NCBI GenBank assembly: GCA_000004695.1
Contig: CM000152.2
Span: 2,272,001 to 2,336,000, forward strand
Origin: Dictyostelium discoideum
Taxonomy: Eukaryota
Direction: 5' to 3'
DNA: 64,000 nucleotides
Positions within the stretch are counted from its first letter, which is position 1; every line of letters starts with the position of its first letter. Both the position numbers and the translations under genes were made by a program. Below the pieces are notes generated by a model that ran no database searches, was not told where the DNA came from, and saw only the letters and a program-made list of their open reading frames with translations. Of the stretch, positions 35,458-42,626 are shown piece after piece.

Positions 35458-36309
35458 ATGGCAAACAAAGAGATAAAAAGAAAAACTACTGAACCAAAAA
35501 AAGAAATAATAAAAGAAGATGATAAAAAGAAAAAAATAGATGTTGTAGTATCAAAAAATAAAAAACAAAAAGTTGAATCACCACCATCTTCTGAAAGCGA
35601 ATCAGAAAGTGAATCAGAGTCAGAATCATCAGAATCAGAATCAGAATCAGAATCAGAATCAGAATCAGAATCAGAATCAGAATCAGAATCAGTTGAAAGT
35701 GAATCCTCAGAATCTGAATCTGAATCATCAGAATCTGAACAATCTGAAAGTGAATTAGAAAAAAAAAAAGAAAAAGAAAGAAAAGCATTTGAAAAATTAT
35801 CACCAAAAGAAAAAATTGATTATCAAAAGAAACAAATTGAAAAAGAATTTAAAGTACAAGAAAAAGAGAAAAAGAGAGAAAAAGAAAAGAAATTATTAAA
35901 GCAAGAGAAAATTAAAAAAGAATTGGAAGAAAAGAAATTAAAATCAAAAAATTCAGAGATTTTAATGTATTTAGATACTTGGAAAAATGATAAATCAAGT
36001 TGGAAATTTGAAAAGAATACTCAAGTTATTTTAATTAAAAATATTTATTCAATAGATACATTACCAGAGAAATATTTCAAAATCGCATTAGAATATTTAG
36101 CACCACTAAGAGGTTTAATTAAAGATAGAACTGTTGATGAAGCAAAACAAGTTATTACAAAATATAAAACAAGTCAAACTAAAAAGAAATTACCAAAATC
36201 TAAAACTGATAGTGATGATGAAAGTGATGATGATGATGATGAAATTGAAAAAGAAGATAAAATTAAATTCGAAAGAGCTCAAAGTATAATAGAAACTTTA
36301 GTTAAATAA
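35458..36309 (+). CDS. Acidic Ser/Glu-repeat, lysine-rich, nucleolar-type protein, 283 aa; possible C7orf50/DUF2373-like C-terminal domain (low confidence)
   Basis: ATG at 35458. (GAATCA)n encodes an (ES)n tract. KKEKE basic/acidic charged blocks. The C-terminal block DTWKNDKSSWKFEKNTQVILIKNIYSIDTLPEKYFKIALEYL resembles the WKFnK..Q.WLL motif of the C7orf50 family as I recall it, not verified. Confidence 0.65.
   Translation: MANKEIKRKTTEPKKEIIKEDDKKKKIDVVVSKNKKQKVESPPSSESESESESESESSESESESESESESESESESESVESESSESESESSESEQSESELEKKKEKERKAFEKLSPKEKIDYQKKQIEKEFKVQEKEKKREKEKKLLKQEKIKKELEEKKLKSKNSEILMYLDTWKNDKSSWKFEKNTQVILIKNIYSIDTLPEKYFKIALEYLAPLRGLIKDRTVDEAKQVITKYKTSQTKKKLPKSKTDSDDESDDDDDEIEKEDKIKFERAQSIIETLVK
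35630..35692 (+). repeat. Perfect (GAATCA)n hexamer repeat encoding (ES)n, inside the CDS at 35458-36309
   Basis: gaatcagaatcagaatca... about 10 units, with imperfect copies on both sides. Confidence 0.9.
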
Positions 36310-36569
36310 AAATTAATAAAAAAAAATAAAAAATAAAAAATAAAAAATAAAAAAGACTTGTAATATTTATCTAAAAGAAAATATATTTATTTTTATTTAC
36401 AACTTTTTATTTCGATTATTATTATTATTTTTTTTTTTTTTTTTTTTTGGATTTTTTTTTTTTTCTTTTTAATTATAAAAGAGCCTTATTATTTTTGGAA
36501 AATTATTTCTGGTTTGATTTTTTTTTTTTTTTTTTTTTATTATTATTATATTTTAATTAATTATTTGAC

Positions 36570-36570
<1 letters not shown>

Positions 36571-36614
<44 letters not shown>
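36571..36614. repeat. (GATT)11 microsatellite immediately 3' of the JmjC gene stop codon
   Basis: gattgattgatt... x11, ending 4 nt before the TAA (36621-36619, minus strand). Confidence 0.95.
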
Positions 36615-36618
36615 AATA

Positions 36619-37756
36619 TTAAATTATTTTTTTATTATTATAAAGTTCTTGTTTTACATATAAACCTTCTTCTTTTTCTTCAATTTGATTTTTATAGTTA
36701 AAGGCAGCAATATCTTTTTTCATGGCAATTTCAGGTTCAGTAGTATTGAATAAATCCTCCAATTGAGCGAGAGGAACCTCACCACATTTTAAGAGGAGAG
36801 TTTGATTAACTTCATCGAAACTAAATATTGATTTCTTACCTACGATACCTACGTACTCTTCTTGATCTTGGTCACCGAAAAACAAAACAACAATCTTTTT
36901 ACCTTGAATCAATGATGGGAGTAATTTAGTGTTTGGAGGAATTACAGATAAATCTTTAACCCAAATACATGGTAACAATGGACAACTATTTGTCTTTGCC
37001 CATAAAACACCACCGAAAGCTTTTCTTTGACTGAGATACAATTGAACTAAGGGAGGTAAATTTTCAATTGGCTTATAGTGTGGATTTGGTTTACCCAAGA
37101 TTGCATTATTAGAGGATCTAAACAATTCAATCAATGAAATAATAAATTTATGAGTTGATGTCCATTCTTTTAAATTCTTTGGTGGTCTACCTTTTGGTTT
37201 ATCATTATCTAAAACAATTGGTCTTTTCTTGGAATGCACATCCATTGGTTTTTGTGTTGATGTTGATGAAGAAGATAATGAAGTTGATAAACTTGAAAGT
37301 GATGATGTTGTTGGATTATTATTGTTATTATTATTATTATTGTTATTATGATGATGATGTGACATCATATGATGATTATTATTATTATTATTATTATTGT
37401 TATGATGATTATTGTTATTATTATTATTACCAGAAAAATGAGACATTAAACCATCATCACCACCATTACGTGGTCTTGGTTTTGTTGGTGTTGAGTTTGA
37501 TGATCCTGATCCTGATGATGATGATTGTTCATCATCATATTGACGTCCAGATTTTAAAATTTGAATATGACCATTATTATTATTGTTATTGTTATAATTA
37601 TTATTATTATTATTATTGTTATAATTATCATAACTACCATATGATTGTTGTTGAGAGAGTGAAGATAAAGCATTTAATGAAGAATATGATGAATTTAAAT
37701 TATTATTACCGTTATTATTATGATGATTATTATTATTAATATTGTTATTATTAATA

Positions 37757-37791
<35 letters not shown>

Positions 37792-37829
37792 ACTATTGTT
37801 GTTATTCATATTATTATTGTTATTATTAA

Positions 37830-37863
<34 letters not shown>

Positions 37864-39790
37864 ATTATTGTTGTTATTATTATTACTATTATTATTATTA
37901 TTATAAGGTAAACCAAGTTGTTGATTATTATTTAAAATACGTGGATGATTTGAAGAATTTGAATTACTAGTACAATTTGAACAATCGCAAAGTCCTTTAC
38001 AACAGAAACATTCCCATTCATTTCTTTTCATTAAAACTTGAAAGTTTTGACCAAAAGTATTGACTACACATTGTTCACAGAAACGAGCGTTACAATTGGT
38101 ACAAAAGATGATTGAAAACTTTTTAAAACGTTTTTCACATCTATGACATTTGATCTTCTTTTGAGAGGAATAAAAGACTACATGATAAGCGACAGTTGCA
38201 GTTGTAAGGAAACCACATTCATCAGAGACACGATCGGTTGATTTGGTGATGATATCATCGACTTCCTTTGGACGACGACCACTATGAGCCAATAGATTCT
38301 TGTAGATTTCATAGAAACTACTCAATTCTTTCTTTAATTTGCTATGAGAGATGAATTCTTTGAGTACCATAACCTTGAAATGGAATTCACAACCGATACC
38401 AGACGAGACACAATCGAAACAGAAATCCTTACCTTGACCATCATCGGTTTTACAAGTTTCACAATGGTAACAACGATTGAAGATATCAGAGTTACAATGA
38501 TCACAACGACGATCTTGAATACGGTCGCCATTAAAGTATTTGAAAGGTTGAAGGAATGGTATGGTTTCACCATTACAATAGGGATAGTTTGGTTTTGGGA
38601 TTAGGATGGACTCAGTTTGTAAAATGTTATGAAATATCTCCAACAATGGTGCAATGATATCGATGACATCGTTTACATCGATCGTATTGAAATTGGTATT
38701 CTCTACATCACCCATAATCTTTCTAAGGGTGTAATAAGCGATGGCTTTAATTCTAAAGAGTTCTGGTTTTGCCATTCTTCTTGTATGAGGTAATGATGAA
38801 AAGTAAGAGATTGGCAAAGACTTTAAAGAGATACTATTCCATGCTACCTTTGTTGAAATGCCTGGACCACAGTTTACCACTTGATGTACGGAATCGGGTG
38901 GAACGAAAATGAAATCTCCTGGACGTTGTTTAAATACGTATATTGGAAATGGAGCACCCAAAAGATCGATTGGTCTAATGAATCTTGATTCGTTGTAAAC
39001 GTCACCTCCCTTGTCACCCCAAAACTTTAATGCCTCATCTTTGTATTCAGTTGGAACTATAAACCACCATGCAAAAGCGTCTTGGTCACTTGATACCATA
39101 AGGTTTTGACTAAGACTGCCACACATATCGATATGGCCTGGTGTATAGGTACCATTGCTACCAATATAAACTAACAATGTCTCTGGTTGTAAATAATCTG
39201 GTAAATGTGATACTAAATCGAATCTACTCTTGTATGAATATTGTGGTTGAAGTTTATGTGAAAGATATTCTTGCCATTCGCGTGGACATGCTATATCTTT
39301 ACCATATAAATGTTTTGGATTTCTTTCTTCTGGTGAAACTTGTAAATATGATATAAAATCTTTCATTCTCCATCCTTGTAAATCTGTATGAGTTTCATTA
39401 TTTCTTGGTGAATTAATTAATTCCATTTCTGAATATCTTTCCTATTTTTTTTTTTTTTTTTATAATTTATTTAAAAAAAAAAAAAAAATAAAAAAAAAAA
39501 AGTTAGTATTTAAAACATTTTTTTTTTCTTTTTAAATTTAACCATATAGTGATATTGTTTATAATTTATTATTTATTTATTTTTTTTATTATTATTTGAT
39601 AAGATGATTTTTTTTTTTTTTTTTTTTTTTTTTCATTTGATTTAAAAAAAATTTAATTTAAAAAAAAAAAAAAAATTAATTTGAAAAAAAAAAAAAAAAT
39701 AAAAATTCTGATACGAAATAGTGATATTTTTAAATTGAAATTAAAAAACAAAAAATAAAATAAAATAAAATATTTTTTAATTTAAAAAAA

Positions 39791-39822
<32 letters not shown>

Positions 39823-40107
39823 TGAATAATAATGATGATAATAATAACTTACAGATAAAAAGTCAAGAGTAAACATATTACTTCTTGACCAACCTTGAGT
39901 TGTACCTGTTAATACAAATGGTTGACCTCTTTTTATTATATAATCCTCTACTATTTCTGGACTAGTTGTTTGGTATGGTTGGTTTGACATTATTATGAAA
40001 TTCGAATTTGGTGCCTTTATTAATTCTTCCATATTAAAATTAAGTATATTATCAACACTAGGAAGATACATTGGGAATTCTATATTTCTAGTTGTATCAA
40101 CTTGCAT
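36619..40107 (-). CDS. JmjC-domain (KDM3/JMJD1-like) protein with Cys-rich zinc fingers and C-terminal PWWP domain, about 1025 aa: join(40107..39853,39441..36619)
   Basis: Seen in sequence: the 125-aa ORF (ATG 40107) ends ..GQPFVLTGTTQGWSRSNMFTLDFLS|GTAAGT (39852-39847). An in-frame phase-0 acceptor aaaaatag|GAAAGATATTCAGAA sits 15 nt upstream of the ATG at 39426, giving ..DFLS|ERYSEMELINSPRNNETH.. Established knowledge supports the join: in KDM3-type proteins a W-containing block directly precedes the JmjC core, as here with (H..D...S...G.K.W..HQVVNCGPGISTKVAWN). Two C-rich fingers follow (CDHCNSDIFNRCYHCETC.., CHRCEKRF..CTNCNARFCEQC). After a poly-N/H region comes a PWWP-like block VLWAKTNSCPLLPCIWV...KKIVVLFFGDQDQEEY. 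The 411-bp intron is long for this genome, hence moderate confidence in the first exon. Confidence 0.7.
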
Positions 40108-40299
40108 CTTTTAAGATATATATATATATGTGTGTGTGTGTGTGGTATAGTTTTTATAAATGTATTATGTATATATTTATATAAGTTATTTATAAATATG
40201 TGTGTTTTTTTTATTTTTATTTTTATTTTTTTATTTTTATTTTTATTCGTTTTGTTTTTGCTGTAATTATTAACTATTAATTCTTTTATTTGTTTGATT

Positions 40300-40740
<441 letters not shown>

Positions 40741-40747
40741 AAACACT

Positions 40748-40847
40748 NNNNNNNNNNNNNNNNNNNNNNNNNNNNNNNNNNNNNNNNNNNNNNNNNNNNN
40801 NNNNNNNNNNNNNNNNNNNNNNNNNNNNNNNNNNNNNNNNNNNNNNN
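40748..40847. other. Assembly gap (100 N)
   Basis: Exactly 100 n characters. Confidence 1.
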
Positions 40848-41264: not shown

Positions 41265-42626
41265 TTAATAAAATAACACCATAGTATCTAGCAAATCAGA
41301 TAAAAAAGGAAGATGAATTGAATCTAAACCCTTTTTCCAAGCATTTGTAGTACTATCGACTTTAACTAAATGTCTAAGTTTCTCTTTGGTATCGGATAAT
41401 ATTGAGATAGAGATTCGACTAATTATTAATTGTACACCTTGAATTATACCACGTTGTATTGAGATACCACAAGAGGAGGATAGATTAATTTTATAAGATT
41501 TTGATATACTTTCTCTCATCTTTTTAATTTGATTTGATTCGATATTTGGTCTTTTAAAAAGTGCATACAATATAGACTTTACTCGAGTAATATATTTCCT
41601 ATAGCCAATTGTGAAACTACTATTATTTATACATGTTACATTTGAATTCATTAAAGAAATATACCACCCATTCCTATTTGGTATATCATAGAATAGTATA
41701 TTTGAAAAATGACTACTAACATTATCCCAAATCAATGGCAATCTATCACTATTATTACAAAATATATCAAATGCAATAACTTGACCCAACTGATTCAATT
41801 TCTTTTCACCACCATACCCTGAAAAGTATTCTTTATAATCTAAATCTTTAAATGATTTACCATTTGGTGCATATTCCATAACTATTTATTTTTTTAAAAA
41901 AAAAAAAAAATAATAAAATATTATTAGTATTAATGTTTTTTTTTTTTTTTTATTTTTTATTTTTTTAAAAAAAAAGAACTTACTTAAAAAAAATGATTTT
42001 AATAATTCCAATTTAATATAATCATATAAACTTTTATTAGTTTTTGAAGATATTGTTAAAAGTGATCTTGACATTTGAATATATTCATCATTTGAGTATT
42101 CTAATAATCTCATTTCGGGTATTGGTAATTTTAAGATACTTTCTAAAACAGATGCATAAACTTCTTGAACAATAGTTGTTGATGATTTTAATAAAACTTG
42201 ATTGTACTCACATTTATTATTTAAAAATGTTGCAATTAAAAATATATTTGAACTACCTAAATCAAGTTTATCAACACTAATTAATGATGACCAGTCAATA
42301 CAATGTATATTTGAATATTGAATCATTGGAATATATGAATTATTATTTTTATTTTTATTTTTATTATTATTATTATTATTATTATTTATTGAATTATTAT
42401 TATTATTAATATTATTATTATTTACACTATTATTACCAATATTAATATTATTATTATTTTCTATATTTTCTTCATTTATTTTATTCTCAATTATTATATT
42501 ATTTTTTATATCAGTACAAGTATTAGAGGTTGAATCATTTGTTGATTTTTTAATTTCTATATTATTTTTCTTATTTTTTATCTTTTCAAAAAAAAAGTTT
42601 TTTTTAAACACTTTTATTTTATTCAT
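41265..42626 (-). CDS. Actin-fragmin-kinase-like / atypical-kinase-like protein, about 419 aa: join(42626..41984,41881..41265)
   Basis: ATG 42626. Exon 1 ends ..LLKSFFL S (TTA A|GTAAGT, 41983-41978, phase 1). Acceptor aaataaatag|TT ATG at 41882/41881 (phase 1) gives ..SFFL-I-MEYAPNGKSFKDL.. The motif QLGQVIAFDIFCNNSDRLPLIWDN resembles the catalytic-loop region of actin-fragmin kinase family members (recalled, not verified). 102-bp intron. Confidence 0.6.

Follow-up and report, generated by a model that had tools for sequence, protein, structure and literature searches.

The cbfA locus of Dictyostelium discoideum: a two-exon gene, already annotated, for a JmjC protein with a probable PWWP-like C-terminal domain

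Where does the JmjC gene on the minus strand of this stretch of Dictyostelium discoideum DNA begin, and what do its two ends encode? The stretch (contig CM000152.2, positions 2,272,001 to 2,336,000; 64,000 nucleotides, hereafter the window) contains a long open reading frame (ORF) of 935 codons, and translation from its first ATG would start the protein in the middle of the catalytic fold. A first-pass annotation proposed that the gene gains an upstream exon through a 411-bp intron and that the product joins a KDM3-type demethylase core to a PWWP chromatin reader. We conclude, with a probability of roughly 0.88, that this is cbfA, a gene of two exons whose product is C-module-binding factor A.

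The proposed exon and intron are present in the sequence, with the borders and the phase that had been proposed for them. Exon 1 (39853..40107, minus strand) has 255 nt and holds codons 1-85 (MQVD...FTLDFLS). The intron (39442..39852) is 411 nt long, has a GTAAGT donor at 39852 and a TAG acceptor ending at 39442, and lies in phase 0. Exon 2 (36619..39441) holds codons 86-1025 and the stop codon TAA at 36621..36619, and the joined coding sequence of 3078 nt encodes 1025 amino acids. The AG acceptor does lie 15 nt before the internal ATG (39424..39426), with an open frame (GAA AGA TAT TCA GAA) between them; this ATG, the first of the 935-codon ORF, encodes Met91 and is not the start of the protein. 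The intron contains several in-frame stops, ends with ...A17-TAG, and has a G+C content of only 7.1%, below that of exon 1 (29%) and of the first 1.5 kb of exon 2 (35%). Also, a TACTAAC motif (39502..39508) that resembles a branch point, and may serve as one, precedes the acceptor by about 61 nt, with a T-rich tract after it. At the other end of exon 1, G+C content falls from 25-31% within the exon to 6-14% upstream of it, and an in-frame TAA (40113..40111) lies two codons upstream of the ATG at 40107.

The joined protein matches D. discoideum KAM9949415.1 at 100% identity over its full length, and it falls into the same 90% cluster as O97101 / XP_641715.1 ("C-module-binding factor A"). In particular, its residues 26-1025 are identical to the curated 1000-aa CbfA (O97101.2 / XP_641715.1), which contains the same junction (...FTLDFLS/ERYSEMEL...). 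Exon 1 is identical in KAM9949415.1, and exon 2 is identical in the public CbfA models. The upstream exon and the 411-nt intron were part of the public annotation beforehand, and the models differ in the start codon only. So, the gene does not "gain" an exon here, because the same splice is already in O97101.2/XP_641715.1 and in KAM9949415.1. Nor is the ATG at 39426, which had been described as annotated-looking, a publicly annotated start: both public models use exon 1. The gene model of the first-pass annotation is a correct re-derivation of an existing annotation and not a discovery. For cbfA, the gene itself, the intron, the architecture of JmjC, zinc fingers, and AT-hook, and the biology had all been described before. 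What is new is minor: a probable N-terminal extension of 25 residues, a PWWP-like C-terminal domain (CTD) with a degenerate cage, and the loss of Fe ligands in one ortholog.

Within the interval, 10 GT..AG pairs would keep the frame open, and only 39852/39442 matches the orthologs in both sequence and length. Homology is continuous across this junction. The phmmer alignment to human JMJD6 is unbroken over residues 47-303 (with QPFVLTGTTQGWSRSNMFTLDFLSERYSE among the paired segments), exon 1 aligns to JMJD6 residues 54-~95, and homologs from dictyostelids, Arcella, Acrasis, and fungi show no indel at the junction. In an AlphaFold2 model of residues 40-345, built from an alignment of 8 sequences (predicted local distance difference test, pLDDT, of 84.7; predicted template modelling score, pTM, of 0.84), a confidently modelled helix (81-87) spans the junction and pLDDT is 81-94 in the part encoded by exon 1. 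As modelled, the residues of exon 1 would be integral to the catalytic fold of the JmjC domain, as strands and helices at its N-terminal end; together with the JMJD6 alignment, which begins at residue 47, this bears out the earlier suggestion that the upstream exon supplies the segment in front of the JmjC core.

A second D. discoideum assembly, GCA_054883475.1, has the same two exon sequences but an intron of 404 nt (L001 3256..3659), which supports the splice. Homopolymer runs of this intron are short by 2 T and 5 A in total. These 7 nt, a number not divisible by 3, reflect either polymorphism between strains or noise in the assembly of homopolymers. The gene model of one ortholog (P0003, from EukProt) leaves all of the others exactly at the junction (FLKVWVVESMEYTQEG vs. 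FL.E.Y....LINSPRN), which suggests that the position of the intron is conserved and that a splice site was called wrongly in the P0003 model.

We considered two other starts for the protein. It is scarcely believable that the protein has no intron and begins at the ATG at 39426, with 935 aa, and that the upstream ORF of 125 aa does not code for protein or belongs to a small gene of its own. In favor of this, no continuous ORF is longer than the one of 935 aa, but homology to JMJD6 and to all of the orthologs runs upstream of Met91 and through exon 1, exon 1 is present in both public models, its residues are modelled confidently as integral strands and helices, and the composition and splice signals of the intron fit those of a real intron. 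The other candidate is Met26 (40030..40032), which the curated 1000-aa CbfA uses; the splice would then be right and the first 75 nt of the ORF (from 40107 to just before 40032) would be 5' untranslated region (UTR). All of the CbfA papers, like O97101.2/XP_641715.1, number by 1000 aa, and the reported 115-kDa band fits the calculated 114.3 kDa. However, a "115 kDa" band would also suit the 117.2 kDa calculated for the Met1 form, and Met1 is the start in the newer NCBI model. Also, protein-level conservation extends through residues 1-25 in two dictyostelid orthologs. These residues are MQVDTTRNIEFPMYLPSVDNILNFN in CbfA, and their counterparts are MQVDFSRYLEYPQFVPSVESLLNFD and MQSINLKTLDYPLFVPPVESLVNFD (13/25 and 7/25 identical in P0003 and P0004, both of which begin with MQ). 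In contrast, the position of Met26 is Ile in both orthologs. Finally, the G+C content of codons 1-25 is exon-like (25%, vs. 14% in the 150 nt upstream). Because residues 1-25 are conserved, Met26 is not, and the composition of codons 1-25 resembles that of an exon, we think a start at Met26 unlikely and favor a start at 40107: judging from these sequence comparisons, translation probably begins there, as in the newer NCBI model, and the N-terminal peptide would be MQVDTTR.../IEFPMYLPSVDNILNFNMEELIK. The curated CbfA is then probably missing its first 25 residues and all published residue numbers shift by 25; for example, the published R812 of the AT-hook is R837 here.

A 1208-aa UniParc entry (UPI000052A128, P0011) could be taken as a sign of a further upstream exon. 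We rejected this because tblastn finds its 193-aa N-terminus encoded nowhere in the 64-kb window. The entry departs from the window's sequence just before an EcoRI site (GAATTC, codons E10-F11; region 40003..40107), and it follows the wrong frame through zinc finger 1, which corresponds to an alternative-frame ORF at 38334..38573. It is probably an obsolete version of CbfA from a chimeric clone with sequencing frameshifts.

From its N- to its C-terminus, CbfA has a JmjC domain, two Cys-rich fingers, and a PWWP-like domain, which is the order given by the first-pass annotation; an Asn-rich linker and an AT-hook lie between the fingers and the last domain. The JmjC core (PF02373, aa 176-286, 38839..39171, minus strand) matches Pfam with E = 2.8e-25 (89.4 bits vs. 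a cut-off of 24), and the whole catalytic fold, which is the cupin/DSBH fold of 2-oxoglutarate/Fe(II) oxygenases, covers about aa 47-303. The Fe(II) triad, which had been suggested as a check, is there: HIDMCG and HQVVN are both present, and H188, D190, and H271 align to H187, D189, and H273 of JMJD6. Of the 2-oxoglutarate-binding residues of JMJD6, T184 and N197 pair with T185 and N198 of CbfA, but K204 pairs with Ala209; K283 of CbfA is invariant. The triad is kept in 7/8 homologs and its first His is invariant in all eight. In a dictyostelid ortholog from EukProt (P0002, 53% identical, with the same CTD), the motifs read HMN...IYQVLN instead of the HID...HQVVN of D. discoideum, so that N and Y occupy the positions of two of the three Fe(II) ligands (the corresponding codons in the window, 188-190 and 271, are at 39127..39135 and 38884..38886). 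Going by these substitutions, P0002's sequence suggests a non-catalytic JmjC domain in that species.

Which JmjC subfamily is closest? With the single sequence as query against PDB, the best matches were JMJD6 (E = 5e-9) and KDM6B (1e-8), and there was no KDM3 match at E ≤ 1. With a profile of 8 sequences, JMJD6 (2.9e-10) and KDM6B (2.8e-9) were again ahead of KDM3B, which matched over its full length (2.6e-6, profile positions 14-266) and ranked below JMJD6 and KDM6B/KDM6A/UTY. A Foldseek search with the AlphaFold2 model gave JmjC matches from 1e-15 to 1e-12 (KDM6B/UTY at about 1e-15, JMJD6 at 1e-14, KDM3B at 2e-13) with template modelling (TM) scores that were all 0.6-0.7 (0.66-0.69 for KDM3B). 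On these sequence and model comparisons, the JmjC domain of CbfA appears to be roughly equidistant from several subfamilies. JMJD6 and KDM6A/B/UTY are the best matches in both sequence and structure, yet identity is only about 20%. The JMJD6 alignment takes in the N-terminal segment encoded by exon 1, and the core TPGH-x-[DE]...S-x-N...W-F-[IV]-VP of CbfA resembles that of KDM6. The accessory domains are unlike those of CbfA: KDM6 has a GATA-like zinc domain and tetratricopeptide repeats (TPRs), and JMJD6 has neither these nor others.

The KDM3/JMJD1 H3K9 demethylases (human KDM3A/B and JMJD1C; plant IBM1/JMJ25) share with CbfA a JmjC fold with an HxD...H triad, and they are significant but distant matches in sequence and structure that rank below JMJD6 and KDM6. 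KDM3 enzymes have a zinc finger upstream of the JmjC domain, whereas both Cys-rich regions of CbfA (aa 398-439 and 510-595) are C-terminal to it. Also, KDM3 and the plant proteins lack the AT-hook and PWWP-like tail of CbfA. Thus, membership in the KDM3/JMJD1 subfamily does not agree with either the ranking of the closest relatives or the position of the fingers. What may be left is a distant affinity: the HQV-N...K-VA motif after the second His resembles that of KDM3 enzymes, and plant KDM3s also carry zf-4CXXC_R1.

Cys-rich finger 1 (CDHC...CYHC..C...CFDC......C, aa 398-439, 38380..38505, minus strand) corresponds to the "ZF" region, 373-414 in the literature's numbering (PMC2661138). C398, C401, C412, C426, C429, and C436 show no variation among 8 homologs, and no Pfam family scores above threshold (the best is DZR, with E = 0.22). 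The finger looked ZZ-like, but Pfam gives no ZZ match. Cys-rich finger 2 (aa 510-595, 37912..38169, minus strand) is a diverged zf-4CXXC_R1 domain of the CDCA7 type (PF10497; E = 5e-9 to 9e-10, 36.6-39 bits vs. a cut-off of 22.7), and it matches PDB chains of CDCA7 at E = 1.5e-4. The zf-4CXXC_R1 domain of CDCA7, a sensor of hemimethylated CpG, shares with CbfA the Cys pattern ...W-x-C-x2-C-x-G-x-C-[DN]-C-S-x-C. The two differ in that CHQCR, RGQFC, and CLRNRYG of CDCA7 are CHRCE, NARFC, and CVVNTFG in CbfA. The CDCA7 residues that are mutated in the immunodeficiency, centromeric instability, and facial anomalies (ICF) syndrome are R274, G294, and R304. In CbfA, their counterparts are E, A, and V, and finger 2 lacks the class I signature (the ICF residues). 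A class III without the ICF residues has been described for IBM1 and DMM-1 (Funabiki et al., bioRxiv 2023.01.30.526367), and by its sequence, finger 2 of CbfA would be a diverged, class III-like finger, as in these two proteins.

An N-terminal JmjC domain followed by two Cys-rich domains defines the CbfA-like proteins, which include CbfB of D. discoideum, DMM-1 of Neurospora crassa, and other fungal proteins (PMC2661138), and an N-terminal JmjC domain with a diverged zf-4CXXC_R1 domain has been reported from fungi (DMM-1), Amoebozoa, and Naegleria (bioRxiv 2023.01.30.526367). CbfA has this architecture: a JmjC domain and two Cys-rich domains, the second of which is a diverged zf-4CXXC_R1. Its homologs at 26-36% identity are from Arcella, Acrasis, Neoconidiobolus, and Mortierellomycota, and related fungal proteins (Neoconidiobolus, Mortierellomycota, and Glomeromycota) match at E = 1e-43 to 1e-73. 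A profile search for distant named JmjC relatives brought up nothing but unnamed CbfA-like proteins from early-diverging fungi and gave no placement relative to KDM3, KDM6, or JMJD6. We infer, comparing DMM-1 by its published description, that the JmjC part of CbfA belongs to a CbfA-like/DMM-1-like lineage and not to KDM3. The C-terminal domains of CbfB, DMM-1, and other CbfA-like proteins are unrelated to that of CbfA (PMC2661138).

Between finger 2 and the CTD lies an Asn-rich low-complexity linker (about aa 596-812, 37261..37911, minus strand), where Tandem Repeats Finder detects AAT/ATT repeats and which is the Asn-rich domain of PMC2661138. It is followed by the AT-hook DKPKGRPPKNLKEW (aa 832-845, 37162..37203, minus strand), which overlaps a bipartite nuclear localization signal (NLS). 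The DNA binding of the AT-hook, the NLS, and their roles in vivo have been shown experimentally (PMC2661138).

The rest of the CTD (about aa 893-1000, 36697..37020, minus strand) seems to be a beta-barrel with helices that resembles PWWP domains. Pfam's PWWP family (PF00855) matches aa 897-965 with E = 3e-3 to 8e-4, below the gathering score: 18.4 bits for the full protein, 20.3 for the isolated CTD, and 19.5 in P0002, as compared to a cut-off of 25.6. The ten best sequence matches in PDB are all to PWWP1 of NSD2 (E = 0.1-0.5). In this alignment, fGGvlWaKtnscPllPCiw...vvlFFGD of CbfA pairs with vGdlvWsKvsgyPwwPCmv...vqFFGD of NSD2, which covers the diagnostic blocks G-x-(L/V)-V-W-A-K...P-x-x-P-C...(V/L)-F-F-G-D. 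An exhaustive search of 1.84 billion representative proteins found three true homologs of the CTD (P0001, P0002, and P0012), all dictyostelid-like; a fourth hit (P0013) is a spurious repeat protein. AlphaFold2 models from these 3 sequences have five strands followed by helices, with a core pLDDT of 85-91, which is the five-stranded beta-barrel and helical bundle of a PWWP fold, and 4/5 models agree (pLDDT 73-76). Foldseek matches to the model have E values of only 0.05-0.3. Taking the sequence blocks and the models together, we consider it quite probable that the CTD has a PWWP-like fold.

The cage is another matter. Y233, W236, and F266 of the NSD2 cage correspond to C905, L908, and F939 of CbfA, the P-[WH]-W-P motif reads P-L-L-P (P906-L-L-P909), and the central Leu (L908) is common to all three CTD homologs. 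Because two of the three cage positions are Cys and Leu, a role as a canonical methyl-lysine reader is unlikely. Of the PWWP chromatin reader that had been proposed, only a match at the level of the fold stands; the reader function is put in doubt by a score below Pfam's gathering threshold, by the PLLP motif, and by the replaced cage residues. Other proteins with PWWP domains (NSD2 PWWP1, BRPF1, ZMYND11, and DNMT3B) or with PWWP and AT-hooks (LEDGF/p75 and the HDGF family) do not share the PLLP motif or the Cys and Leu in the cage, and unlike in LEDGF/p75 and the HDGF family, the AT-hook of CbfA precedes the barrel. PWWP is not mentioned in the CbfA literature that we examined (including PMC2661138 and PMC4559204), where the CTD is described by its AT-hook only; its published DNA binding was attributed to the AT-hook (PMC2661138). 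The precomputed Pfam annotation lists JmjC and zf-4CXXC_R1 only, and no PWWP. The third of these homologs (P0012, 196 aa) has Tyr at the first cage position of its PWWP-like core (YPILP), and it lacks the GRP core of the AT-hook (NRRPKHTPEW); therefore, the AT-hook is not universal in the family of this domain.

Two other accounts of the protein need to be weighed. In one, the resemblance to PWWP is an artefact of an AlphaFold2 model from a shallow alignment combined with a chance sub-threshold match to Pfam, and the CTD is a lineage-specific fold. This would fit with the score below the gathering threshold, with PDB matches at E = 0.1-0.5 and Foldseek matches at E ≥ 0.05, with there being only 3 homologs among so many representatives, and with the absence of a Pfam match to P0012. 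However, independent weak signals agree: 10/10 of the best PDB matches are to one PWWP domain and run over its diagnostic blocks, and 4/5 models have the same fold, which leaves a lineage-specific fold rather doubtful. The other account is that of the first-pass annotation, namely a KDM3/JMJD1-type demethylase of H3K9me1/2 that is targeted by a canonical, methyl-lysine-reading PWWP domain. KDM3B is indeed a significant full-length match, with TM scores of 0.66-0.69, and the HQVxN...K[VI]A motif is KDM3-like. Also, the plant KDM3-class proteins IBM1 and JMJ24 pair JmjC with zf-4CXXC_R1 (bioRxiv 2023.01.30.526367), and the CTD has a PWWP fold in which the third cage residue, F939, is kept. Nevertheless, the account is improbable: JMJD6 and KDM6B/UTY are better matches in sequence and in structure searches, the fingers are downstream of the JmjC domain instead of upstream, Y233 and W236 of the NSD2 cage are C905 and L908 with a central Leu in all three CTD homologs, two Fe ligands are missing from P0002, and no demethylase activity was detected for DMM-1, a related protein with an N-terminal JmjC domain (PMC9023284).

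We lean instead towards a dictyostelid-specific, cage-degenerate PWWP domain that is fused to the AT-hook and NLS, which would make the CTD a LEDGF-like chromatin tether on a JmjC protein and give a JmjC-PWWP architecture without a second case among the 1.84 billion representatives that we searched. In that set, the AT-hook with the PWWP-like tail is found only in dictyostelid CbfA orthologs. Several points weigh against our reading of the locus as a whole. For the gene model, the splice is deduced from homology, from gene models in public databases, and from signals in the sequence; UniProt's curated model begins at Met26; and 115 kDa from a western blot cannot separate 114.3 from 117.2 kDa. 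For the JmjC domain, one ortholog (P0002) lacks two Fe ligands, K204 of JMJD6, which binds 2-oxoglutarate, aligns to Ala209 of CbfA, and the 2-oxoglutarate lysine of KDM6B, K1381, aligns to Gly179. Given these two alignments, the catalytic competence of the JmjC domain of CbfA is only putative. For the CTD, the PWWP call rests on a model from 3 sequences, with Pfam below threshold, Foldseek at E = 0.05-0.3, and no Pfam match in P0012.

CbfA is a nuclear regulator whose AT-hook-containing CTD binds the A+T-rich C-module of the retrotransposon TRE5-A in vitro (PMC2661138). On its own, the CTD enters the nucleus and rescues most of the gene expression that depends on CbfA, and the repression of agnC, an Argonaute gene, is part of this; a smaller set of CbfA-dependent genes needs the JmjC/zinc-finger part. 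Repression of agnC by CbfA permits TRE5-A amplification (PMC2661138, PMC4559204). We propose, by analogy with the PWWP domains and AT-hooks of LEDGF/HDGF-type proteins, that the PWWP-like barrel gives a second contact to DNA or nucleosomes beside the AT-hook; it would probably not be a canonical methyl-lysine reader. The JmjC/finger module may act on chromatin either catalytically or, by analogy with DMM-1 and Epe1, which are reported to lack detectable demethylase activity (PMC9023284), without such activity. The main regulatory part of CbfA, which supports TRE5-A retrotransposition, can now be seen as an AT-hook with a PWWP-like barrel beside it. Also, the loss of the triad in one ortholog and a zf-4CXXC_R1 domain without the CDCA7 signature fit the view taken of DMM-1 and Epe1, in that this lineage may act largely non-enzymatically.

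The (GATT)11 microsatellite (36571..36614, plus strand), which was said to abut the stop codon of cbfA, is near it and would read (AAUC)n in the 3' UTR, but it lies 4 nt downstream and does not strictly abut it. Tandem Repeats Finder reports 12.5 copies of GATT at 36565..36614, in one of 229 tandem-repeat rows in the window. With 22.5% G+C, poly-Asn tracts, and this many repeats, the window is typical of D. discoideum, and because it is so repeat-rich, the (GATT)n tract is unremarkable. The convergent downstream neighbor of cbfA (35458..36309, plus strand) encodes a Ser/Glu-rich WKF-domain protein of 283 aa (PF10180, E = 4.5e-23). Its stop codon is about 310 nt from that of cbfA, so the 3' UTRs of both genes share a short intergenic region with (GATT)11.

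An assembly gap of 100 N (40748..40847) lies some 640 nt upstream of the start codon of cbfA. It is bordered by very long tracts of poly(A)/poly(T), among them a run of 195 A at 40522..40716, and this assembly therefore does not give the full sequence of the cbfA promoter. Beyond the gap is an actin-fragmin kinase gene (41265..42626, minus strand) in two ORFs that are halves of the catalytic domain (PF09192, profile positions 2-123 and 125-282). We considered and rejected a gene interrupted by a stop codon: a small AT-rich intron ending in TAG lies near 41882, and GCA_054883475.1 calls a single 419-aa gene.

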